Shown here: positions 1,221-63,343 of the stretch, piece by piece | How positions within the stretch are numbered: the first letter of the stretch is position 1 | Layout of the letters: each line of letters starts with the position of its first letter | From: Candidatus Woesearchaeota archaeon | Lineage (GTDB): Archaea > Nanobdellota > Nanobdellia > Woesearchaeales > GW2011-AR4 | Direction: 5' to 3' | Assembly (NCBI GenBank): GCA_016188245.1 | Contig: JACPIE010000038.1 | Location: 30,939 to 94,938, forward strand | DNA: 64,000 nt | Position numbers and translations under genes: made by a program | The notes under the pieces: generated by a model | What the model saw: only the letters and a program-made list of their open reading frames with translations | Database searches by the model: none | Told to the model about the DNA's origin: nothing

Positions 1221-2042
1221 ATGCAAAAACTGGCAATAAAAGAGCAGATTGTGAAAATTGTAAAGAAATCCGGCAATGGCGGAGCTGTATGGGTCCCAAA
1301 AAATTGGCTGGGGCAGGAAGTCATAGTTACGCTTCCAGACAAGCCGAAGTTAGATTTAAAAGAAAAAATTATACACCTGCTTGAGCCTTATTTGAAAGAC
1401 ACAATTGCGGTTTTTGTTTATGGCTCATATGCAAGGCATGAAGAGACAAAAGAGTCCGATATTGATGTGATGGTTATTACAATGAACAAGCCAATGCCAA
1501 TAAGCATTGACGAGCCAAATTTAGAAATAACCTCTTTTCAACTGGATAAGCTAAAGAAAGCAATTGAAAAATATCCGGTCATGTACTGGCAGATTGTGCA
1601 GGAGGCAGTTCCATTAATAAACTCTTTTGTGCTGGACGAGTTAAAAAATATTGAAATCAGCGAAGAAAAATTTAAAAGCTATATTGGCGAAGCTAAAGAG
1701 CATGCTGAAAGCAATAAAGAGCTTATAGAGCTTGATAAATTAGACGGCAAATTCCTAAAATCTTACTCGGCATTGTATTCTGCAATACTGAGGCTGAAGG
1801 GAATGTTTATCATAAACTGCATATCAAACAATGAAAAATTTTCAAGTAAGGCATTTAAGGAATGGATTCTACAAAACAGATTAACAAACCAAGAATTTGA
1901 GCAATGCTATTCAGCTTACCGTGCAGTCAGAAATGATGAAAATGCTAAAGGTATTAAGATTAAGATTTCTGTTGCAGAAAAATTATTAAATATACTGGTA
2001 ACTGAAACAGATTTGATGGAAACCAAGCTTTATGGCAAATAG
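1221..2042 (+). CDS. nucleotidyltransferase-domain protein (MNT-like) with N-terminal AbrB/SpoVT-like swapped-hairpin domain
   Basis: 'KKSGNGGAVWVPKNWLGQEVIV' resembles the AbrB/MazE fold. 'FVYGSYARHEETKESDIDVMVI' is the GS...DxD minimal nucleotidyltransferase motif. Confidence 0.6.
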   Translation: MQKLAIKEQIVKIVKKSGNGGAVWVPKNWLGQEVIVTLPDKPKLDLKEKIIHLLEPYLKDTIAVFVYGSYARHEETKESDIDVMVITMNKPMPISIDEPNLEITSFQLDKLKKAIEKYPVMYWQIVQEAVPLINSFVLDELKNIEISEEKFKSYIGEAKEHAESNKELIELDKLDGKFLKSYSALYSAILRLKGMFIINCISNNEKFSSKAFKEWILQNRLTNQEFEQCYSAYRAVRNDENAKGIKIKISVAEKLLNILVTETDLMETKLYGK

Positions 2043-2223
2043 AAAAAAGAGGCTGCAAAAAGGAATTAACTCGCTTGACAAGCAGATTAAGCTGCACGAG
2101 GAGAAGCTTAAGAAAGCTGGGGAAGAAGACAATATTGAGCTTATCGGATACTACAAAAAAGAGATAAATGCAAAGAAAAAAGATAAAGAAGAGAAGGAAA
2201 GGTTATTGGGCAAAGGAGGGTGA
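2032..2223 (+). CDS. small lysine-rich coiled-coil protein (uncertain)
   Basis: 63-aa K/E-rich ORF immediately downstream of the MNT gene. No motif recognised. Confidence 0.25.
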   Translation: MANRKKRLQKGINSLDKQIKLHEEKLKKAGEEDNIELIGYYKKEINAKKKDKEEKERLLGKGG

Positions 2224-2242
2224 ATTTTTAATTTTATCAAGA

Positions 2243-4180
2243 TTATCTCCCAACAGATTCTTCCTTTCTACTCTCAAAATGACTTCTTGCAGATATCAAG
2301 TCTGATGCACCCAATAAGTCTGTTGGGAAATTTCCGCCTATCAAGGGCTTTCTCAGTCCAATATCCCATCCAACAGGATTTTTGCCTACTCTGACAGCAT
2401 GATCCCAATATAGCTCTCTTAATAGCCTGTCAGCAATATATTTTGGCAGCCCTCTTGAAGATTTTTTAGGAAATGGGTTTTCAGACCATTTGTTTATGCC
2501 GTCTTTGCCTTCATAATAATACATCCTTCCCCAATGGAAGTCAATGCATTTAGCATTTGAAGCCCTTCTGTCATGGGCAGGATTAAGCTGAGACGGCTTT
2601 CTGATTCCGCTTTCTATTGTATAATCATCTTCATTTAAATTTAATTTCATTTGGTATCTTCTTGTAACTTTTTTTTCATCATGAGGCACAGCCATGAAAT
2701 CGCTTGGCTTTGCAGTGACATAGCTTGACATCTGGTCAAATTTCAAAGTTATTTTTTCTTTTGGGATTACAGTCTCTATATCCCTGCCGTTTTCTGTCTT
2801 CGTCCTGTAAGGCAGAGGCCCGCAAATCTGCTTTAGTTCTCCAGGGGCAAAACTCCTGTCTCCTTCGTAAAAAATGGTTGAGAGCCCTTCGCCTGCAAGA
2901 ATGTAGTCCATCGCAGTCTTTGAATGTGGATGGTAAACTCCCGCCCTTAGATCGTCCCTGACTGCATCAAGCTCATGGAACATATACAATGCTGCCTTAA
3001 GCAAGTCCAGCTTCTTGCAAAAAAACTTTGGAACTTTCCTTATTCCGCCTTTACTCACTCCATTGTTAACTTTGGCATTCCAGATTTCTTTTCCCCAAGG
3101 CTTGCTTTTTATGATTTTTTCCTGCCATTCATTTTGGGCTATTTCAGACCACCACTGGTCTAATAAAACTGTGCCGTCTTCACCAACTTCAAGAGGATAT
3201 CCATTTTCATCCAATCCTGCTTCGACTTCATCATTCCTTTTGAAGCTTTCGTTTTCGTGCCTACAATACTCTTCAAAGGTCCAGGTTGCCTTTCTGAAAA
3301 ATTCGTCAGTATTGTTAGGATCGAATTTTGGGTTTTTAATAACAGGGGCTACTATCCGGTATGTATGCTTAAACCTTACATTTTGCGGGCGCAGCTTTTC
3401 CAATGATGTCCACAAAGAATCAAAATCCCTGCTGCTTTCATCTGCCGGGCTTATCCATTTATTTTGAAAACTCGCTTCTCTTTCACGTATTTGTGCCAAC
3501 GCTCCATTTGCTCCATTAATTTTTTCATCTAATTCATTTATAAGATTCCAAATTGCGCCCAAATCCCCTCTTAAGTCACGCGCTTCTTGATCCCAATCAT
3601 CTTTGCGATTTTGCCAGCTTTTCCGAATTGACGGAACTGTTGCATGCCCAATAACGGAAATTTCTTCAGGAAACGCCCCATCATCATCCAAATAAAAAAC
3701 TTTTTCGCTGCCCAGTGTATATTTTTTGACTGTAATAGCATCATTTTCTTCAATTCCATGCCGAATAGGTTCTTCATTTTCAGAAAAACCAGTTCCTATC
3801 TCAAAGAACCTTTTTTCCAATTGGATTATATCGGGATCTGTCAAGAAAGACATACTTCTATAGCGGGCAACAATAGAGTTTTGGCTTTCCCATATTGATT
3901 CTTTAAAGCTTTGCCAGCATCTTTGCTCAATATCTTTAAGCCTTGCTATCAAATTTTCATTTGCTTCAAATTCCGGGCCCAATTCTTTTCTTATCTCAGT
4001 TTCGGATGGGCCGCCTCTTTCCCCTATTTCCGGCTCTTGCATATACCCAAGCCATCGCCCTTTTTTAGTTCTGGCAAATCTATTTTTAAGTCTTATAAGC
4101 CTGTTTTTGATTTTCCACTCAGGATAGCTGCCCGGCGCTTCCATCCCCAATAAATCTTCTTCATCAGCCATAATATTCAC
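2243..4180 (-). CDS. large hypothetical protein (645 aa), last gene of a five-gene operon
   Basis: Long uninterrupted ORF with no recognisable domain and coiled-coil-like stretches. Tightly spaced with the upstream genes on the same strand. Confidence 0.55.
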   Translation of the reverse strand: MNIMADEEDLLGMEAPGSYPEWKIKNRLIRLKNRFARTKKGRWLGYMQEPEIGERGGPSETEIRKELGPEFEANENLIARLKDIEQRCWQSFKESIWESQNSIVARYRSMSFLTDPDIIQLEKRFFEIGTGFSENEEPIRHGIEENDAITVKKYTLGSEKVFYLDDDGAFPEEISVIGHATVPSIRKSWQNRKDDWDQEARDLRGDLGAIWNLINELDEKINGANGALAQIREREASFQNKWISPADESSRDFDSLWTSLEKLRPQNVRFKHTYRIVAPVIKNPKFDPNNTDEFFRKATWTFEEYCRHENESFKRNDEVEAGLDENGYPLEVGEDGTVLLDQWWSEIAQNEWQEKIIKSKPWGKEIWNAKVNNGVSKGGIRKVPKFFCKKLDLLKAALYMFHELDAVRDDLRAGVYHPHSKTAMDYILAGEGLSTIFYEGDRSFAPGELKQICGPLPYRTKTENGRDIETVIPKEKITLKFDQMSSYVTAKPSDFMAVPHDEKKVTRRYQMKLNLNEDDYTIESGIRKPSQLNPAHDRRASNAKCIDFHWGRMYYYEGKDGINKWSENPFPKKSSRGLPKYIADRLLRELYWDHAVRVGKNPVGWDIGLRKPLIGGNFPTDLLGASDLISARSHFESRKEESVGR

Positions 4181-4198: not shown

Positions 4199-5920
4199 TT
4201 AAAAATATTCCGGCTCCGAAATGCTTATTCCATTTTTAGTGAAATAGCTTGGAGCAGCTCGTTTCAATATTTCATCAACCACTGCTGCCTGAGCCATCCT
4301 CTCTTTCAAAGCCGCTCCCATACCCTGAATTTCTTTGGCTTGATTCTTTAATTCAAGTACCCCTAAATTCTGAACTTTTCGGATCTTTTTTTCATCTTCT
4401 ATGACTCTCTCATCTGCCTCGAAGGAAAATGGATTTATTGCCCTGCCAATCCTTCTTCTTAGGGTTTCAAGCTTTGCTCTGGTCAAGTATACATAAGCGC
4501 CTATGTACGAATTTATCGCCTTATTTTTATTTTCAACCCACGATGCATTTTCTTCAACAAAATTCAATACAGGCTCGCCATAGTCCAGCAACGCATTTGT
4601 GAACGCTATCTTTTCTGCTCTTGTTTCTTTCCTTAAAAAGCCGAGCTCTGTTAGCAGCAGTGCTTCAAACTCCCTTAAGTTTGCTGACTTTCTTTTTGCG
4701 TCTTTGAAAAGATTTCTTAAAATGGCAGCAAGCTCTCTTAATTTTGCATTGATATCTCCTGCTGTCAACTCTTTCCTTCTTTGACTGAATATTTCGGTTA
4801 ATTCTTCCGATGCAGGCAGTATAATATGGGCATTTTGATATGACGGATGGACTAATCTTTTATATTGTAAGTTTAATTCCGCATACCAAGCTGAAGGTGT
4901 TTCATTAGTATGCAAGGCCTCCATCCTATCCGCAAATTTTGTATTTCCAAATTTTTTCCTGAACAACTCAATGAACCTTTCACCACCCATCAAATTTGGA
5001 TAGAATTCATTACCTTGCCCATCCTTTTCGCTAAATCCTTCCCACCTACCTTTGGGCATAGCATCCTTGACTATAGCTATCCATTTTACAAAAAAATCAA
5101 CCTGTCTTTTGTATGTCAACAGGCTTTTTAAGGCATTGGATTTATTGATTTGCGTCACTAAATTTTGTTTATCCTTGAAATACCTGATTAATCCAAGAAA
5201 ATTCTGCTTTTCAAGCTTACCGCCTTGCAAGTAAACCATAACCCTATTCCAGAAGAACATTATATTGTTGCCTATCCTAAAGTCTTTCCAGCTTTGAAGA
5301 TCACCAATACATCTGTCAATTTCAGCAGCTTCTGCCCCGCTGATTTCAATAACAAGCTTTCTTAGTTTGTCTTTAAGCTTATCATCCTCTTTCAATAGAT
5401 TCACCCAGTTAACCAATTCTGCCCCGTGAGTCTGAAGATATGACTTGGCAAATTCCGGATTTGCGTTCAGGGCAGCCAATAATGCGCCCAGGATTGGAAT
5501 TGCATTTTCTTGCGCAGGGCTGAATTTTCTAAGTGCATTTGCCAATCTTGGGTTGTTTGCTTCAATGCCTGCTTCCTTTTCACTGCCTTTTAAAGCCTTT
5601 AATTTTTCATTTTCAAAACTTGCAGCGTCCTGAAGCAGAAAGTATCTAAGCCGAAGGGCTTTTCCGTAGGAATTCCACCTTTTATTCAGCCTAATCAGCA
5701 ATTCCTGCGATTTTAGCACACTCCAATATTTTTCCCATACAAACCTTCTGTCAGCCAAATATTGAAACAGATTGGATGGGGCTGCTTTTGGCTCCATTTG
5801 CCACATTCTTTCCAGTGCCTGCACATCTGCATCAGCAGAAGCTTCATTTCCTCTTTTTTCGATTTTATTAATTACTGCCATTTTATTTGCTCTTTTCAAT
5901 TGTTGCAGTGCCTTTGGCAA
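4199..5920 (-). CDS. large hypothetical protein (573 aa), operon gene 4
   Basis: Long ORF, soluble and alpha-helical in character, no known motif. Its 5' end overlaps the upstream gene by 38 nt, consistent with translational coupling. Confidence 0.55.
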   Translation of the reverse strand: MPKALQQLKRANKMAVINKIEKRGNEASADADVQALERMWQMEPKAAPSNLFQYLADRRFVWEKYWSVLKSQELLIRLNKRWNSYGKALRLRYFLLQDAASFENEKLKALKGSEKEAGIEANNPRLANALRKFSPAQENAIPILGALLAALNANPEFAKSYLQTHGAELVNWVNLLKEDDKLKDKLRKLVIEISGAEAAEIDRCIGDLQSWKDFRIGNNIMFFWNRVMVYLQGGKLEKQNFLGLIRYFKDKQNLVTQINKSNALKSLLTYKRQVDFFVKWIAIVKDAMPKGRWEGFSEKDGQGNEFYPNLMGGERFIELFRKKFGNTKFADRMEALHTNETPSAWYAELNLQYKRLVHPSYQNAHIILPASEELTEIFSQRRKELTAGDINAKLRELAAILRNLFKDAKRKSANLREFEALLLTELGFLRKETRAEKIAFTNALLDYGEPVLNFVEENASWVENKNKAINSYIGAYVYLTRAKLETLRRRIGRAINPFSFEADERVIEDEKKIRKVQNLGVLELKNQAKEIQGMGAALKERMAQAAVVDEILKRAAPSYFTKNGISISEPEYF

Positions 5921-46000: not shown

Positions 46001-47554
46001 CTATTCAACACTCTTTCCTAATTTAGATAGCTTTTCCCCTTCCATAAACCTCCTTAAAACATCCTTCAAGTCTTTTATTTTGACTCTGATTTGCTCTGTC
46101 GTATCTCTCGATCTTATTGTCACAGATTCATCCTCCAGGCTTTCAAAATCAACAGTGACAGATGCGCAGATTCCTGATTCATCTGCCCTTGCATACCTTC
46201 GCCCTATCGAGCCCGAAGTGTCAAAAGTGCAGGTCCATCCTGCCTTTAGCTCATCATACACGCTCTTTGCTTTCTTGACAAGCTCTGCCTTATTGGAAAC
46301 AAGAGGAAAAATTCCTATTTTTATGGGCGCCAGCCTCGGATGCAGCTTCAGCACTACATTGTCCCTTGACTTGTCGTAATTGTAGGCATCAAACATGAAT
46401 ACAAGGAAAGCCCTTTCCACCCCTTGCGACGGCTCGCAAATGACATGAGGCAAAATTTTTTTCTTTGTCTCTTCGTCAAAAATGCTCAAGTCAGTCTTGC
46501 TGTGCTCCATGTGCTGCTTTAAGTCAAAGTCTGTCCTGTTTGAAAGCCCCTGCAGCTCCTTCCATCCGAAAGGAAACTCGTATTCCAGGTCCCATGTGTC
46601 AAGCGCATAATGCGAAAGCTCGTCTTTTACATGCTGCCGTATCCTGAAATGCCCGGAAGAAGCCCCCAAATCAACAAACCATTTGTGCATTATAGCCAGC
46701 CAGTAAGCATGCCATCTTGTCTTTATTATCTTTTTGCTGAGGCATTCTTTTATCGGCATCTTCTGCATTTTTTGGCCTTTTTTTTGCATTTCAGCTGAAA
46801 GCACATTCAGCTCATAGTCAATGACATCTTCAATGTAGGCGCATTCATCCTGCTTTTCAGGATGGACAAAATATTCAATCTCCATCTGCTCGAATTCCCT
46901 CATCCTGAACAGGAAATCCCTTGGTGAAATTTCGTTCCTGAATGATTTTCCGATTTGGGCAATCCCAAACGGAAGCTTCAGCCTTGCATTCTCCTGCACA
47001 AGCCTGAAGTTGGCAAAAATCAGCTGGGCTGTTTCCGGCCTCAAATAAGCCGCTGAGGCATCGCTCTGAATCGGCCCAATGTGGGTTGTGAACATAAGGT
47101 TGAATTTTTTGGCATCACCTAGGCTGCCGCTGCACTTTGGGCATTTGATTTTATGCTCTTTTATCTCTGCATTCAGGCCTCCAATAGTCATGCCTGCTGT
47201 GGGAATCTTCAACGTATCCTCGACCAAAGTATCTGCCCTGAACCTTGAATTGCACTTCCTGCAATCGACAAGCACGTCAGAAAAGCCGGCTGCATGCCCG
47301 CTCGCTTTCCACACAAGCGGATTTGATATGATGCTTCCGTCAATGCCGACAACATCATCCCTCTGGTGTACAAATGTTTTCCACCACTCCTTCTTTATGT
47401 TGTTCTTTAATTCAACTCCAAGATGCCCGAAATCATAAAATCCGGCAATTCCCCCATAAATCTCGGAATTAGGGTAGACAAACCCCTTTCTCTTGCAGAA
47501 AACAGCCATCTCATCGATTGTTAGTTTTTTTGCGTCTTGCTTGATTTTTTCCAT
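46001..47554 (-). CDS. glyS: glycyl-tRNA synthetase (archaeal/eukaryal type)
   Basis: Class II motifs 'GIAGFYDFGHLGVELKNNIKKEW', 'FRNEISPRDFLFRMREFEQMEIE', and the anticodon-binding C-terminus. Confidence 0.9.
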   Translation of the reverse strand: MEKIKQDAKKLTIDEMAVFCKRKGFVYPNSEIYGGIAGFYDFGHLGVELKNNIKKEWWKTFVHQRDDVVGIDGSIISNPLVWKASGHAAGFSDVLVDCRKCNSRFRADTLVEDTLKIPTAGMTIGGLNAEIKEHKIKCPKCSGSLGDAKKFNLMFTTHIGPIQSDASAAYLRPETAQLIFANFRLVQENARLKLPFGIAQIGKSFRNEISPRDFLFRMREFEQMEIEYFVHPEKQDECAYIEDVIDYELNVLSAEMQKKGQKMQKMPIKECLSKKIIKTRWHAYWLAIMHKWFVDLGASSGHFRIRQHVKDELSHYALDTWDLEYEFPFGWKELQGLSNRTDFDLKQHMEHSKTDLSIFDEETKKKILPHVICEPSQGVERAFLVFMFDAYNYDKSRDNVVLKLHPRLAPIKIGIFPLVSNKAELVKKAKSVYDELKAGWTCTFDTSGSIGRRYARADESGICASVTVDFESLEDESVTIRSRDTTEQIRVKIKDLKDVLRRFMEGEKLSKLGKSVE

Positions 47555-53758: not shown

Positions 53759-56176
53759 ATGGACATTCCGAAAAACTACAATCCTAAAGAGTCAGAGCCA
53801 AAATGGCTTGAGTTCTGGGAAAAGGAGAAAATATACGCTTTTGACCCTGAAAGCAAGGCAGAGGTTTACTCTGTTGACACTCCCCCACCAACAGTTAGCG
53901 GGAATATGCATATTGGTCATTCATTTTCTTATTCACAACAGGATTTTATTGTTAGGTTCCAGAGAATGTCCGGAAAGAATATTTTTTATCCATTTGGCGT
54001 AGATGACAATGGACTGGCTACGGAAAGGATGATTGAGAAAATGAAAAATGTAAAGGGCCAGTTCATGCCCAGGCAGGAATTTGTAAAGCTATGCTACACA
54101 ACTGTAGAGAAAATAAGAAACGATTTTGTCCAAGACTGGAAAAAGCTGGGGGTTAGCGCTGACTTTAATATATTTTATTCAACAATAAACAAGCATTCAC
54201 AAAAAATATCGCAAAGATCCTTCATCGAGCTTTACAAGTCAGGAAGGCAGTACAGGAAGGAAGGCCCTACAATCTGGTGCCCTGAATGCCGGACAGCAAT
54301 AGCCCAGGTGGAGATGAAAGATGAGGAAAAAGCAACCAGTTTAGTGCACATTGAGGCAAAGACGGAAAAAGGAGAGCCGCTTGTGTTTGCAACAACAAGG
54401 CCGGAGCTTTATCCTTCCTGTGTGGGAATTTCCGTCAACCCAAATGATGGGAGGTACAAAAAATATGTCGGCCAAAAAATTATAATGCCGCTGACAAATG
54501 CCGGGATTGAGCTGACCACAGACGAAATGATAGACCCGGAATTTGGCACAGGAGTTGTATACTTCTGCAGCAGCGGAGATGCGCAATTTTTGGACTGGGA
54601 GACAAGGCACCCTGTCAAAAACAAGATCTACATCCTGAATTTTGACGGCACCATGAATGAAAAGGCAGGAGTGTACAAGGGGCTTACAATAGCAGAAACA
54701 AGAAGGAGAATAGTTGAAGATTTAAGCAGGCTTGGAGCGGTCAAGAAAACGGAGCAATTGAAGCACTCCGTTAATGTTCATGAAAGGTGCGGAACAGTTG
54801 TTGAATACATGGTTTCCAAGCAGTGGTACATCAAGTATCTTGACTTAAAGGAAGAATTCATAAAATACGGCAGGAAAATAAAGTGGTATCCTGAGCACAT
54901 GCGCATCAGGTATGAAAACTGGATAAATGGATTGAAGTGGGACTGGAACATTTCAAGGCAGAGGCATTTTGGAATTCCAATTCCTGTCTGGTACTGCAAA
55001 AAATGCAATGCAATAATCGCTGCAGATGAAAATCAGCTGCCTGTTGACCCATTGGTTGACAAGCCATCAAAAAAATGCAAATGCGGCTCAGGCGATTTTA
55101 TTGGGGAGAAAGATGTTTTGGACACTTGGGCAACTTCCTCTTTGACTCCCGATATTGCAGTTGCCTTATTCGATAAAAAAACCCAAAAAAAATTATTTCC
55201 GATGAATTTACGGCCGCAGGCGCATGACATAATAACCTTCTGGCTTTTCAATACTGTTGCAAAGAGCTATCTTCACCATAAGGAGGTGCCATGGCATAAT
55301 GTCATGATATCCGGATTTGTTCTCGATCCTTACGGGAAAAAAATGAGCAAGAGCAAAGGCAATGTTATTGACCCAAGGGAGATAATTGAAAAATACTCGG
55401 CAGATTCCCTGAGATTTTGGGCAGCCGGCTCAAGATTGGGGGATGACATGCCTTTCCAGGAAAAAGATTTGGTTACCGGCAGCAAATTCATAACAAAAAT
55501 CTGGAATGCCTCGAAGTTTGCATCCATCCACCTTAAGGATTATGATTTGAGAAATCCGGGCAAGCTGCATTTGATGGAAAGGTGGATTTTGTCAAAGCTG
55601 AGCAAAGTTGTAAAGGAATCAACCGAAAATTTCATGAATTATGAGTATTCGCATACAAAGCTTGCGGCAGAAACATTCTTCTGGCACACTTTTTGCGACA
55701 ATTACCTTGAAATCATAAAGGATAGGTTGTACAATGCTGAGAGAAGGGGGGAAGATGCAAGATTATCTGCGCAATACGGGCTGTACCAAACCTTGTTGGC
55801 AATAACCAAGCTGATGGCCCCAATTATGCCGTTCATAACCGAAGAGCTTTACCAGCTTTATTTCAAAAGCCATGAAAATTCAAAGTCAGTGCATCTTGAA
55901 AAATGGCCAGATATAAACTTGATTGATGAGCATGCAGAGCACATTGGAGATTTTGTTGTGCAAGTTGTCGAATTTGTAAGAAGGCAGAAGACGGCAAAGC
56001 AGCTGTCCTTGAAAGCCCCTGTGAAGAAGCTGACGATAAAGGCAAAAATAGAGGAAACTGATTTTGATGAAGTTGAAGCCGAGATAAGGGCAGCGACATC
56101 GGCTGAAAGCATAGTTTTCGAGCCGACAAGAGGCAAAGCTCCAGAGAAGGATGTCGAGATTGAAGTTGAGTTTTGA
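53759..56176 (+). CDS. valS: valyl-tRNA synthetase
   Basis: Class I 'PPPTVSGNMHIGHSFSYSQQD...PFGVDDNGLATE', 'KMSKSKGN' and 'DVLDTWATSS'. A length of 805 aa fits archaeal ValRS better than LeuRS or IleRS. Confidence 0.75.
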   Translation: MDIPKNYNPKESEPKWLEFWEKEKIYAFDPESKAEVYSVDTPPPTVSGNMHIGHSFSYSQQDFIVRFQRMSGKNIFYPFGVDDNGLATERMIEKMKNVKGQFMPRQEFVKLCYTTVEKIRNDFVQDWKKLGVSADFNIFYSTINKHSQKISQRSFIELYKSGRQYRKEGPTIWCPECRTAIAQVEMKDEEKATSLVHIEAKTEKGEPLVFATTRPELYPSCVGISVNPNDGRYKKYVGQKIIMPLTNAGIELTTDEMIDPEFGTGVVYFCSSGDAQFLDWETRHPVKNKIYILNFDGTMNEKAGVYKGLTIAETRRRIVEDLSRLGAVKKTEQLKHSVNVHERCGTVVEYMVSKQWYIKYLDLKEEFIKYGRKIKWYPEHMRIRYENWINGLKWDWNISRQRHFGIPIPVWYCKKCNAIIAADENQLPVDPLVDKPSKKCKCGSGDFIGEKDVLDTWATSSLTPDIAVALFDKKTQKKLFPMNLRPQAHDIITFWLFNTVAKSYLHHKEVPWHNVMISGFVLDPYGKKMSKSKGNVIDPREIIEKYSADSLRFWAAGSRLGDDMPFQEKDLVTGSKFITKIWNASKFASIHLKDYDLRNPGKLHLMERWILSKLSKVVKESTENFMNYEYSHTKLAAETFFWHTFCDNYLEIIKDRLYNAERRGEDARLSAQYGLYQTLLAITKLMAPIMPFITEELYQLYFKSHENSKSVHLEKWPDINLIDEHAEHIGDFVVQVVEFVRRQKTAKQLSLKAPVKKLTIKAKIEETDFDEVEAEIRAATSAESIVFEPTRGKAPEKDVEIEVEF

Positions 56177-57319: not shown

Positions 57320-58723
57320 TTAGGTATAATTTGTACTTTTCCACCTAACCCCTTCTTTTGTATCCTCAAGAACTATCCCTTTCTCCTTTAGCTGATTCCT
57401 TATTTCATCGGCTTTTGCAAAGTTTTTTTCATTTCTTGCGATTTCCCTTTCGTCAATCAGCTTTTTCAAGTCCTGGCTTAATTTTTCATCTTTTTCCACG
57501 AGAACCCCAAGAACTTTGTCAAATCCTTCCATCAGTTTTATTATTTCCTTGGCATCATTCTTTCCTATCTTGCCCCCCATGATTAATGTGTTTGTTTCTT
57601 TTACAAACTCAAAGATATGCGATAATGCAATGCTTATGTTTATATCATCATCCATTGCCTCTTCGAATTCTTTTTTTGTTTTTTGGATTAATTTGCCCAT
57701 TTCTTCATTTTTAATGTTATCCCTTATCTCCTTTAATCTAATCATGAAATCATTCAGCCTTTGCACTGCATTCTCAGCAGCCTTGACAGATTCCTCTGTA
57801 AAATTTAATTGCATCCTGTAATGCGCCGAAAGAAGAAGGTACCTTATTGCCTTTGGATTGAAATTCTTATTCAATAAGTCTCTCAAAGTCCAGAAATTTC
57901 CCAATGACTTTGACATTTTCTGCCCGTTGACCAGCAAGTGCTCGTTGTGCACCCAGTAATTGGCGAATTTTTTCCTTGTCGAGGCTTCACTTTGCGCAAT
58001 CTCGTTCTCATGGTGCGGAAACACCAGGTCAATTCCGCCTGCGTGTATGTCAAAATGTTTTCCCAAACATTTCATTGACATTGCGCTGCATTCAATGTGC
58101 CAGCCCGGCCTGCCTTTCCCAAGCTCGGTTTCCCAGAAGACATCTCCATCTTCACTGTCATAATTTTTCCACAGGGCAAAATCATGGGCATGCTCTTTTT
58201 CATATTGGTCTTGCCTTACCCTTTTTCCGGCTTCCAGCCCCTCCAGCTTGGCGTGCGACAGCTTGCCGTAATCCCCGAATTTGGAAATGTCAAAATATAT
58301 TCCATCCTCGCTTTTGTATGCAATGCCGTTCTTTAACAGTTTTTTAATAATCTCAGTCATTTCCTTGACATGCTCCGTTGCCCTTGGATAATAGTCTGCC
58401 CTGTCAATATTCAATGTTTCGATGTCATCAAAGAATGCTTTTTCATATTTTCTTGTAAAATCCTTTAAAGAGATTTCTTCTTTGTTTGCGCCTTTTATTG
58501 TCTTGTCGTCAACATCAGTTATATTCATCACATGCTTTACTTTATAGCCTGAATACTTCAAATACCTTTTAAGGATATCGCTGCATACATAAGCCCTGAA
58601 GTTGCCGATGTGGGCGAAATCGTATACAGTGGGGCCGCAGGTATACATCTTCACAGCCTTGCCTTTAATTGGCTTGAAGATTTCCTTTTCTCTTGTTAGT
58701 GTATTGTATAATCTTAAAGTCAT
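57320..58723 (-). CDS. cysS: cysteinyl-tRNA synthetase
   Basis: '[20 protein letters not shown]' (HIGH region) and 'KMSKSLGN'. Confidence 0.9.
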
Positions 58724-58773
58724 TTTTCAAATTGTTTGACGCCTGTTAATAGATTTTATTTGAAATAAAAAAA

Positions 58774-58906
58774 AGCGAGGGATGGGATTTTCGTCATTCT
58801 TGAACTCGAACCCATGATAAAGCGGGCTTGGCGCGAGCATTTCATCACCTTTCAGTTCAAATTGCTGCTTTGCAGCCGCTCCCCTTAGCCGCTTGGGCAC
58901 CCTCGC
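58774..58906 (-). tRNA. tRNA-Cys (GCA) with two introns: 43 nt at the anticodon loop, 17 nt in the T-loop
   Basis: Manual minus-strand fold: acceptor GCGAGGG/CCCUCGC, U73 discriminator, anticodon stem AGCGG/CCGCU, anticodon loop CUGCAAA. T-arm AUGGG-UUCGA[GUUCAAGAAUGACGAAA]AU-CCCAU gives the consensus UUCGAAU loop after a 17-nt excision. Mature length is exactly 73 nt. Poly-U follows the 3' end. Adjacent to cysS. Confidence 0.7.
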
Positions 58907-59373
58907 TTGAAAACAACTGATAGAACTAGCAACAGCCGCATATATAATAATCTTGCTTAATCATATTATGAATGTTAATCCAATGATTATTCAGATGTGT
59001 ATGCTCCATTTTATGCCTAAATCGCTTTTCCCATTCTTTTACTTGTCCAAGCCGCGGCTGTTGAAGTCTACTGAAAGCAGGTTTTGAAGGAATTCTTCAA
59101 ATTCTTCCTTGCTTTCCGCGCCGAACTTCGTCCGCTGGTTAGAGTTTAGTTTTGTCTTTTGTACCAATTTTAACACCTCCGAATTTTTTAGAAAAAAAGT
59201 AAGGTTAAAATCGGCAACTAACACACCATCACAGCTGTATGGGCTGTGGTGTGGATAGGGCTGACTGTTGTATGCAGAATACTACTCCTATTCCACGTGT
59301 TACTTGCCATTCTTAATAGATTAATGACCATCTTATATTTAAATATTGCGTTTTTGTGCGAATATCGCACATA

Positions 59374-61880: not shown

Positions 61881-61988
61881 GGTGGCAGTAGTTCAGTGGT
61901 AGAATAAGCGGCTGTGGTGCAACAAGTGAGCACTCACTTACGTTCGTGCAGCTCCCGCTTGGCGCGAGTTCGATTCTCGCCTGCCGCC
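61881..61988 (+). tRNA. tRNA-His (GUG) with encoded G-1 and a 36-nt anticodon-loop intron
   Basis: G-1 plus acceptor GUGGCAG/CUGCCGC, C73 discriminator, D-arm GUUC-AGUGGUA-GAAU, anticodon stem AGCGG/CCGCU with loop CUGUGG, intron ~61918..61953, T-arm GCGAG-UUCGAUU-CUCGC. Confidence 0.8.
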
Positions 61989-62031
61989 CTTTAAAATATG
62001 GAGGCAAAAATGGAAAATATGGTATCAACCA

Positions 62032-62613
62032 GTGATTGTATTCATTGTCGTGCCAAACAATAAGAGCTTGGCAAATTATTTAGATATAACTCTGCGCTAT
62101 TTAGGAAACCCATCTAAAGATAAGGTAGTCGTTTCCAGAGGGGAAGATGTACCATTTATTATAGAGGAGTTATCTCAAAATGGTAAAAAGGCAATTGGCT
62201 TAACAGGCAGGGATTTGTTTAAAGAATACGAGCTATCCAAGTACAACACTAATCTTCTTGTGCTAAAAACTATTGACTGGAATGATAAAAACGCAATGTT
62301 TGGAAAGCCAGTTTTATGCCTGTTAGGCCCAAAAGGTAAAAAGCTGGAAGATTTTCCTAAAAATCTTAGAGTTTCCATTAATTCAAAATACAAAAACCTT
62401 GCTAAAAAATATCTTAATATTCTGGAAGACAAGGGCTATAGGTTTGCTAAAATCTATTTATCGGGTTCAACTGAATCCGCATACTGCAATGGCATTTCTG
62501 ACTTGGTTATTGATATTGTCTATACCGGCTCATCTATCAAAAATGCTAATCTTGAGGTTTATGACAAGATCTTTGAAAGCGATTTTGTAATTATAGGTGT
62601 GAAAAATGATTAA
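62032..62613 (+). CDS. hisG: ATP phosphoribosyltransferase (short form)
   Basis: 'AIGLTGRDL', 'KIYLSGSTESAYCNGISDLVIDIVYTGSSIKNANLEV'. The N-terminal PKGRL motif is degenerate. Confidence 0.65.
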   Translation: MIVFIVVPNNKSLANYLDITLRYLGNPSKDKVVVSRGEDVPFIIEELSQNGKKAIGLTGRDLFKEYELSKYNTNLLVLKTIDWNDKNAMFGKPVLCLLGPKGKKLEDFPKNLRVSINSKYKNLAKKYLNILEDKGYRFAKIYLSGSTESAYCNGISDLVIDIVYTGSSIKNANLEVYDKIFESDFVIIGVKND

Positions 62614-63343
62614 GCCAAGACAAGCTGTAATGGAAATGCAGGCATATAATCCGCCAACTTCAAATAGAGAAGGCTCTTTAAGATTGGATTTTAATGAAAA
62701 TACCAGTGGGTGTTCTAAAAATGTAATAAAGTCGCTTAGAAAAATAAAAAGAGGAACTCTATCAACATACCCAGAATATACGGCATTAAAAAAAGAAGTG
62801 GCGAAATATTGCAAAGTTAAATCAGACGAGATTATCGCAACTAATGGAACGGATGAGGCAATTAAAACAATCATTGAAGTATACATTGAAGTATACATTG
62901 AGAAAGGTAAGAACGAAATTATTATTCCTATGCCGACTTATGCCATGTTTAAATTTTATGCTCAATTGAATGAGGCAATAAATATAGCAAATGAAAAATC
63001 GCCAGAACACTTGGAATTACAAATAAAAAATCCAGAAAATACAATAAGGAAACTTAAAAATTACGGCTCATTGTTTATAGGAGAGAATACAGCAGAAGTT
63101 TTTGGAGATTATTGCAGCGGCACTAATCACGTACTTCCAACAAATGGTGCAGCCAGATTTACTGGAGGCCTATCAGTAAAGGAATTTGTAAAGATTGTAA
63201 CGTGTCAGAGATTTAGTAGAAAAATTCCAAAGAGTATGATTAAGACAGCTTCAAAACTTGCAGAGATAGAAGGACTTGATGCACACCGAAAAGCAGCTTT
63301 AATTAGGTCAAAGAGTAAAAGTGAAGAGAACTCCACCTCGTAG
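62606..63343 (+). pseudogene. chimeric his-operon remnant: hisC (histidinol-phosphate aminotransferase) N-terminal fragment fused in frame to a hisD (histidinol dehydrogenase) C-terminal fragment
   Basis: N-terminal 'LRLDFNENTSGCSKNV...IATNGTDEAI...IIIPMPTYAMFKFYAQL' is HisC-like. C-terminal 'GDYCSGTNHVLPTNGAARFTGGLSVKEFVKIVTCQRFS...AEIEGLDAHRKAALIR' is HisD-like. A 12-bp tandem duplication (gaagtatacatt x2, EVYIEVYIE) sits inside the HisC-like portion. Confidence 0.6.

Follow-up and report, generated by a model that had tools for sequence, protein, structure and literature searches.

A predicted two-intron tRNA-Cys(GCA) gene with a kink-turn signature upstream of cysS in a Woesearchaeota-like archaeon

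The DNA analysed here, a stretch of 64 kb from a Candidatus Woesearchaeota assembly (hereafter the window), carries on its minus strand at 58906..58774 a 133-nt tRNA-Cys(GCA) gene interrupted by inserts of 43 and 17 nt. An earlier note, made from the letters alone, had described such a gene at this place, and the sequence it gave for the locus was exact. Removal of the two inserts leaves a 73-mer with U73 that ARAGORN calls as tRNA-Cys(GCA), as the note had claimed, and the call holds for the junctions proposed there as well as for the corrected ones given below. Unspliced, the locus received no ARAGORN call in default or intron mode, and the Rfam tRNA model was silent at the gathering score, at E ≤ 10 over the local 400 nt and at E ≤ 0.5 over the whole window, so the warning that annotation tools may miss this gene was well founded. 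Neither ARAGORN nor Rfam revealed a second tRNA-Cys within the window. The neighbouring gene is cysS, for cysteinyl-tRNA synthetase (CysRS); the note had the adjacency right but placed the tRNA downstream of cysS, whereas it lies upstream (5') on the same strand, with the cysS ATG 50 nt downstream of the tRNA end. The parts of the locus are as follows, where BHB stands for bulge-helix-bulge and L numbers denote loci of relatives.

58774..58906, minus strand: tRNA-Cys(GCA) gene, 133 nt, no encoded CCA, discriminator U73 at 58774
58870..58906, minus strand: exon 1, positions 1-37, GCGAGGGTGCCCAAGCGGCTAAGGGGAGCGGCTGCAA, a 100% match to exon 1 of L005
58827..58869, minus strand: intron 1, 43 nt, at the canonical position 37/38, with a relaxed BHB; placed by homologs without the intron
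58842..58858, minus strand: predicted kink-turn within intron 1, GA, [ACU-GAAA-GGU], bulge GAU, GA, from homologs and covariation
58805..58826, minus strand: exon 2, positions 38-59, CCCGCTTTATCATGGGTTCGAG, from the BHBs and relatives
58788..58804, minus strand: intron 2, 17 nt, TTCAAGAATGACGAAAA, at 59/60, strict hBHBh', with 14 distinct homologous introns
58774..58787, minus strand: exon 3, positions 60-73, TCCCATCCCTCGCT, from the BHB and relatives
58767..58773, minus strand: T7 run directly after the tRNA, likely an archaeal oligo-T terminator
57320..58723, minus strand: cysS, cysteinyl-tRNA synthetase, 467 aa (PF01406, E = 1.2e-119)

With the CysRS of the window as query, 80 loci were retrieved, and a pattern scan of metagenomes, keyed solely to exon sequence and the edges of the introns, yielded a further 32 genes. 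The closest CysRS among the 80 loci (~80% identity) came from Woesearchaeota metagenome-assembled genomes, and the host appears from these matches to be a Woesearchaeota-like DPANN archaeon. The order tRNA-Cys then cysS on the same strand is kept in many relatives, and T-runs stand 3' of the tRNA-Cys in nearly all homologs. All 32 distinct homologous genes, with one to four inserts each, splice in silico to tRNA-Cys. Four relatives without the T-loop insert (L003, L005, L110 and L113) read ...GGTTCGAGTCCCAT..., and the spliced window product is identical at 73/73 positions to their spliced or contiguous tRNA-Cys, an agreement well above what chance would give; an uninterrupted T-loop, GGTTCGAxTCC, was found in 17 homologs. 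Homologs without the anticodon intron (L002, L004, L018, L021 and L024) read CUGCAAC, therefore position 38 is C and the intron lies at the canonical 37/38 site. The 43-nt intron thus keeps the size and the place in the anticodon loop that the earlier note had given it, while its junction moves by one base and the loop CUGCAAA is replaced. Natural alleles that lack one or the other intron agree exactly with the predicted junctions. The presence of introns varies between close relatives, and the introns diverge freely while the exons stay identical.

To place the T-loop junction, we enumerated every possible BHB in the locus, defined by 3-nt bulges on opposite strands with 4 bp between them and a cut after the second bulge base. 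By far the best of the whole locus lies in the T-arm (auggg UUCG AG/U uca ... uga CGAA AA/U cccau, slashes marking the cuts). It is strict, with the central helix UUCG/CGAA paired at 4/4 positions, flanking helices of 5 bp (the T-stem) and 3 bp, an inner helix UCA/UGA closed by the loop AGAA, and the bulges AG/U and AA/U. This register therefore places the 17-nt intron between positions 59 and 60 and gives a mature T-loop UUCGAGU. The size of the insert and its place in the T-loop stand as first described, while the position moves from 58/59 to 59/60 and the loop UUCGAAU gives way to UUCGAGU, since the only strict BHB cuts at AG/U and AA/U. The site is a listed non-canonical archaeal tRNA intron position (PMC4090602), in line with the note's remark that such positions occur in some archaeal lineages. 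The 14 distinct homologous 59/60 introns, 16-90 nt long, keep the T-stem (5/5), the central helix (3-4/4, with UUCG paired to CGAA, CGGA or AGAA) and both 3-nt bulges. Their inner helices are unrelated in sequence yet paired (TCA/TGA, GCA/TGC, CAACC/GGTTG, GATGCAA/TTGTATC, GATGCGCG/TGCGCATC and others), and such covariation is what a functional BHB intron would be expected to show. The minimum free energy (MFE) fold of the unspliced RNA was not significant (z = -1.4) and not a cloverleaf; only in the centroid fold are the T-stem, central helix and 3-nt bulge of the T-arm BHB visible.

At the anticodon intron, the enumeration yielded no strict BHB. In the 37/38 register the bulges AA/A and AG/C and the flanking helices fit, with the inner helix GCAGC/GCU(C)GC, and the central helix CUGC/GCCA forms two of its four pairs; of the two introns at whose junctions the earlier note called for BHB motifs, one thus has a strict motif and the other only a relaxed one. 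Pairs were counted in an alignment of 34 distinct 37/38 introns. The inner helix is nearly invariant and 93% paired, and the central helix is 65% paired overall, with at most 3/4 pairs in any homolog (C32 in 0/34, U33 in 25/34, G34 in 34/34 and C35 in 29/34). The 37/38 BHB thus appears relaxed across the whole clade, the window copy being one pair weaker. Relaxed and non-canonical introns have been tied to broad-specificity endonucleases, including an alpha4 EndA with an L3 loop in DPANN (PMC5829648). A competing hairpin, GCUGC-AAA-GCAGC, sequesters the anticodon in the MFE fold of the unspliced RNA. A nested intron within intron 1, suggested by a BHB-like AGCA/UGCU arrangement, was considered and rejected, as its removal does not improve the outer BHB.

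Within the 37/38 intron lies a second conserved element. All 34 introns parse alike, into an 11-nt 5' strand, GA, a stem-loop, a 3-nt bulge, GA, and an 11-17-nt 3' strand, which is the arrangement of a kink-turn (K-turn). The bulge is GAU or AAU in 34/34 and on one strand only, GA is present on the 5' strand in 32/34 and after the bulge in 33/34, and the element always lies 11 nt from the 5' splice site, its spacing unchanged throughout. The canonical stem of 3-7 bp occurs in 21 different versions, often with the loop GAAA. Pairing at its three proximal positions reaches 97%, and 6, 3 and 13 sequences show double compensatory changes there. The stem scores 0.183 for covariation, against 0.113 in shuffles (0/500 reach it) and ≤0.073 in slid registers; shuffled segments form the three terminal pairs in 5% of cases, and in 0/2000 trials did all 34 do so together. 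The K-turn is kept in the distant tRNA-Cys introns of L025 and L027 and is absent from introns of tRNA-His (that of the window), tRNA-Phe, tRNA-Lys and tRNA-Leu(GAG). L7Ae is a protein that binds K-turns, and by its signature the element of intron 1 is a predicted L7Ae site. It shares with the K-turns bound by L7Ae (Kt-7, the box C/D and H/ACA sRNAs, archaeal RNase P RNA) a canonical stem, a one-strand 3-nt bulge and tandem G.A/A.G pairs followed by a non-canonical stem with non-Watson-Crick pairs. It differs from them in place, since it sits at the tip of a tRNA intron hairpin that extends the inner helix of the BHB, and it is known here from sequence. A conserved K-turn within a canonical tRNA intron appears to be new.

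Taken together, we read the locus as a functional tRNA-Cys(GCA) gene of a Woesearchaeota-like DPANN archaeon with two protein-spliced introns, removed by EndA and RtcB with the K-turn as a folding aid, and give this reading a probability of roughly 0.85. The gene, its boundaries as marked by natural intron-less alleles, the geometry and covariation of the BHBs, and the conservation and covariation of the K-turn are read directly from the comparisons above. EndA cuts in BHB bulges and RtcB ligates the ends. The pre-tRNA of ~133 nt would be transcribed up to the T7 run, and EndA would cut in the 3-nt bulges of both BHBs, the strict one in the T-arm (17 nt, 59/60) and the relaxed one at 37/38 (43 nt). 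After ligation of the three exons by an RtcB-type enzyme and addition of CCA, the product would be a tRNA-Cys of 73 nt whose anticodon loop reads CUGCAAC and whose T-loop reads UUCGAGU. The 43-nt intron would fold as a hairpin with the K-turn at its tip, most likely serving to bind L7Ae and lock the intron helix; clamping by L7Ae or another K-turn binder would favour the weak BHB over the anticodon-sequestering hairpin. The enzymes, the binding of L7Ae and the folding role of the K-turn are what we infer.

Several points weigh against this reading. Its support is throughout comparative genomics of metagenome-derived sequence. The 37/38 BHB of the window is weak, with 2/4 central pairs, and C32, opposite intron position -3, is unpaired in 34/34 introns. 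Efficient cleavage at this site would need a broad-specificity endonuclease, and none was found among the window open reading frames (ORFs) scanned, nor were other splicing or K-turn proteins. The K-turn is called from its sequence signature and the covariation of the canonical stem only; the positions of the non-canonical stem are mostly non-Watson-Crick (30% paired), which is typical of K-turns and no positive evidence for one. Furthermore, the 42-nt intron of a tRNA-Leu(UAG) gene in L068 (complement of 4850..4977) has a weak K-turn look-alike, GA[GC-UUCU-GC]UAU-GA, and K-turn introns may therefore not be strictly limited to tRNA-Cys.

Among the other explanations of the gene and its introns, the one that survives best concerns the K-turn, which might be a plain stable hairpin that stiffens the intron and has no protein partner, with GA and GAUGA kept for other reasons. 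It is true that only the Watson-Crick stem covaries and that the invariant flanking bases are uninformative. However, these invariant features are the exact K-turn signature, with tandem GA on both strands and a purine-A-U bulge on one strand; a plain hairpin would need neither them nor a constant spacing across 34 introns, and the element persists where the rest of the intron has diverged. We therefore consider a plain hairpin unlikely.

A less likely alternative still is that intron 1 is a box C/D guide RNA for tRNA 2'-O-methylation, possibly of C32. The precedent is the pre-tRNA-Trp intron, which is a box C/D sRNA guiding Cm34 and Um39 (PMC7994747). In the tRNA-Cys intron, GCAGC is complementary to G31-C35 and stands at a fixed distance from GA, such that C32 pairs with the fifth base upstream of the xxGA box and the N+5 rule would indicate C32. 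There is also a match to the C/D sRNA sR17 in Rfam, at 19.1 bits (E = 0.032) and well below the family cutoff of 36 bits. This was the sole sign of another RNA class, which the earlier note had named, together with missing BHB motifs, as grounds for giving up the tRNA-Cys; we attribute it to the K-turn held in intron 1 rather than to a different identity of the locus. The introns have a single GA/GAUGA box pair, with terminal C/D boxes in none of the 34, the guide duplex would be 5-6 bp against the usual 9-12, and the introns of L025 and L027, although they retain the K-turn, are not complementary to positions 31-35. A Cm32 guide was rejected on these grounds and is in our view improbable. The euryarchaeal pre-tRNA-Trp intron (sR50) does resemble intron 1 in its 37/38 site, its L7Ae-type K-turn motif and the competition between BHB and the intron's own structure, but it has C, D', C' and D boxes and two ~10-nt guides, whereas the tRNA-Cys introns (42-50 nt) contain one K-turn capped by a stem-loop and lack both a terminal C/D pair and a convincing guide.

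Decay to a tRNA pseudogene with insertions that are no longer removed would fit the failure of every tRNA detector on the unspliced sequence and the weak 37/38 BHB. It is highly improbable, given a perfect cloverleaf after splicing, exons identical to those of relatives, BHB and K-turn pairing maintained by compensatory changes while the introns diverge, a conserved position upstream of cysS with a conserved T-run, and the window's lack of another tRNA-Cys. The exact model of the earlier note deserves equally little credence: ARAGORN accepts its product and some relatives (L009, L083 and L101) have UUCGAAU T-loops, but the 58/59 register contains no BHB against a perfect hBHBh' at 59/60, the closest insert-less relatives read UUCGAGU and otherwise match the window product, and C38 of the homologs without the anticodon intron contradicts CUGCAAA.

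A two-intron archaeal tRNA with an intron at 59/60 is of an already known kind. Multiple and non-canonical BHB tRNA introns in Thermoproteales, Thaumarchaeota, ARMAN and other DPANN archaea share with this gene BHB-defined protein splicing and the combination of one 37/38 and one non-canonical site; intron presence likewise varies among close relatives, and the lineage has a broad-specificity endonuclease (PMC5829648). The present case differs in its Woesearchaeota-like host, the conserved K-turn in the canonical intron, and the occurrence of four introns in relatives. Many tRNA genes of DPANN archaea are disrupted, and undetected disrupted genes leave their tRNA sets incomplete (PMC5829648). 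Three introns are the stated maximum for archaeal tRNA genes (PMC8450103, the tRNAscan-SE 2.0 paper). We found eight distinct genes with four BHB introns, at 8/9, 30/31, 37/38 and 59/60 (L001, L007, L008, L081/L092, L085, L086, L096 and L099), all of which splice in silico to a clean tRNA-Cys. Their three non-canonical introns have covarying inner helices and central helices of 3-4/4 pairs, 4/4 in every case save the 59/60 introns of L007 and L086. Run in intron mode, ARAGORN assigns several of the multi-intron tRNA-Cys genes to other amino acids, taking L003 for Arg, L102 for Leu and L106 for Gly. As a separate observation, a second copy of GCGAGGG, the 5' strand of the acceptor stem, stands 12-52 nt upstream of the genuine one, in many cases as GCGAGGG...GCTTTGCGAGGG, in L001, L002, L004, L006-L008, L081, L082, L085, L086, L088, L094, L096, L099 and L109. 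A fifth intron was looked for there, and no register gave a consistent BHB; possible readings of the duplication are a fifth intron, a leader hairpin and the scar of an intron insertion.

The region upstream of the tRNA contains three further features.

58926..58964, minus strand: mini-ORF of 12 codons, MIKQDYYICGCC and stop, ending 19 nt before the tRNA; candidate cysteine-sensing leader ORF
59167..59039, minus strand: ORF1, 42 aa (MVQKTKLNS...VDFNSRGLDK, stop), TTG start, with a perfect Shine-Dalgarno sequence GGAGGTG at 59180..59174
59310..59192, minus strand: conserved RNA of ~119 nt, from promoter to T-run, with the TATA box ATTTAAATATAAG at 59344..59332

A longer in-frame version of the mini-ORF starts at 59009. 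Within the mini-ORF, 33 nt before the tRNA, stands a TATA-like TTATTATATA, and the window's own box, CTGAATAAT, is weaker than in other lineages. Its cysteines form C-G-C-C and not an uninterrupted run, and its homologs end in C.CCC and stop. Short ORFs rich in terminal cysteine codons (poly-Cys) flank tRNA-Cys in 17/31 loci, against ~1.2 expected from the background rate. Their peptides are unrelated between lineages (MASVCCCC, MRTPCCC, MKSPGMCCCC, MNSATTNECCCCC, MNSQHQVMCCCC and MIRQDYYRCYCCC, each followed by a stop), and those of other lineages start with ATG, comprise 7-13 codons and close with 3-5 consecutive Cys codons and an immediate stop (TAG, TAA or TGA). In five lineages with unrelated peptides the TATA box ends 22-23 nt before the ATG, which is the geometry of a leaderless mRNA. 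Other poly-Cys short ORFs form a second set, on the downstream side of tRNA-Cys (L027, L009 at 2251..2346, L090, L093, L102, L106, L100, L006 and L088), and those of L009, L090 and L093 have a GGTGA Shine-Dalgarno sequence 9 nt before the ATG. In L027 (about 2030..2995) the gene immediately after the short ORF encodes cysteine synthase (TIGR01136, 406 bits; cutoff 344), and cysS comes next.

Two side observations accompany these short ORFs. A U-rich motif like TTCTCAYTG follows the stop of the mini-ORF in most lineages (TTCTATCAGTTGTTTTCAA at 58925..58907 in the window), and it is present even where the peptides are unrelated (L021, L024, L025, L090 and L113). Small proteins of 97-163 aa follow the downstream short ORFs (L006 from 2613, L090 from 2260, L009 from 2400, L088 from 3762, L094 from 1120 and L005 from 2675), and most of them share, by eye, a G.xYxVxV-like motif. 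Seven of these proteins had no match in Pfam, and one of them (that of L006) had none in NCBIfam either; they may form a Cys-regulated family.

Leader-peptide sensing of amino acids has so far been described in bacteria. Tentatively, and at less than even odds, we suggest that the tRNA-Cys locus is a cysteine-sensing regulatory unit, in which a leader-peptide system would control the tRNA gene and an L7Ae-type K-turn would gate the folding of the weak anticodon-intron BHB. The leaderless mini-ORF would be translated, and when charged tRNA-Cys is scarce the ribosome would stall on the terminal Cys codons. The stalled ribosome might then shield the U-rich motif after the stop, such that transcription or processing could continue into the intron-bearing tRNA-Cys, and in relatives the readthrough would extend into cysteine synthase and cysS. 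A Cys-rich mini-ORF upstream of tRNA-Cys appears to be new, and no report of a ribosome-mediated amino-acid-sensing leader peptide in Archaea was found in the literature searched. The closest parallel is with the polycysteine leaderless short ORFs of mycobacteria, which are Cys-responsive attenuators (bioRxiv 10.1101/834739). Both are very short leaderless ORFs at 5' ends, with at least three terminal Cys codons, upstream of cysteine-related genes, here tRNA-Cys, cysS and, in L027, cysteine synthase. The short ORFs described here differ in being archaeal, in that the next gene is usually a tRNA and not an mRNA, and in that no pairing between the Cys tract and a downstream ribosome-binding site was found, and they are known from sequence.

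Alternatively, the conserved upstream block may be only a tRNA promoter (B recognition element and TATA box), with the Cys codons a by-product of a T/G-rich spacer. The codon-position test of the mini-ORF showed no excess of variation at third positions (0.18/0.18/0.18), the TATA-like TTATTATATA lies at its 33-nt distance from the tRNA, and slippage in (TGT)n could account for the 3-nt indels. C-terminal Cys clusters turn up 6 times in the window, where 1.8 were expected, so the mini-ORF's cluster taken alone is not unusual; the other Cys-cluster ORFs there are alternative frames of real genes. The mini-ORF had nothing significant in Pfam. No conserved leader fold was found (RNAalifold, -2 kcal/mol), no covariation links the Cys tract to GCAGCAA of the intron or to any other downstream sequence, and no pairing of the tract with the downstream ribosome-binding site was found. 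On the other hand, lineages with unrelated peptides and without TTATTATA keep the ATG, Cys run, stop and TATA spacing, which weighs against a promoter alone, as do the frequency of such frames beside tRNA-Cys, the second, Shine-Dalgarno-led family downstream, and the short ORF directly before cysteine synthase. A promoter with incidental Cys codons is possible, though short of probable.

Further upstream, ORF1 is supported as a real protein by frame-preserving indels across relatives. A 61-aa version was rejected as mis-started, as six relatives have in-frame stops in it and the real start is the TTG after GGAGGTG. Neither a search of Pfam with the 61-aa version nor one of NCBIfam with the 42-aa protein gave a match. 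The RNA of ~119 nt starts ~22 nt after its strong ATTTAAATATAAG box, and its T-run ends 11 nt before the Shine-Dalgarno sequence of ORF1. Its closing stem covaries (3/11 pairs) and the loop motif AUUCUG is conserved; it matched no Rfam family and could represent either a small RNA or a 5' leader with a structure of its own.

Elsewhere in the window, the sole tRNA that standard tools detect is a tRNA-His(GTG) at 61882..61989 on the plus strand, whose canonical intron is 36 nt long; adjoining it are ORFs that resemble hisG and histidinol dehydrogenase (62032..63343). Three aminoacyl-tRNA synthetase genes lie within 13 kb, namely a class II enzyme with an HGTP anticodon-binding domain (46001..47554, minus strand), a class I enzyme of the Ile/Leu/Met/Val type (53759..56176, plus strand) and CysRS itself (57320..58723, minus strand).

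Without the gene described here, the genome would appear to lack tRNA-Cys, and the locus is of the type of unidentified disrupted tRNA gene that the literature predicts for DPANN archaea. The ARAGORN miscalls of multi-intron genes are a risk of mis-annotation in DPANN genomes. The family, with between one and four BHB introns in natural alleles of a single tRNA, offers a system for the study of intron gain and loss and of splicing order. Furthermore, the conservation of a single K-turn in the canonical intron of one tRNA suggests a role for L7Ae or another K-turn binder in maturing a pre-tRNA with a weak BHB, and the poly-Cys mini-ORFs beside tRNA-Cys, cysS and cysteine synthase suggest that amino-acid sensing by leader peptides may exist in archaea.

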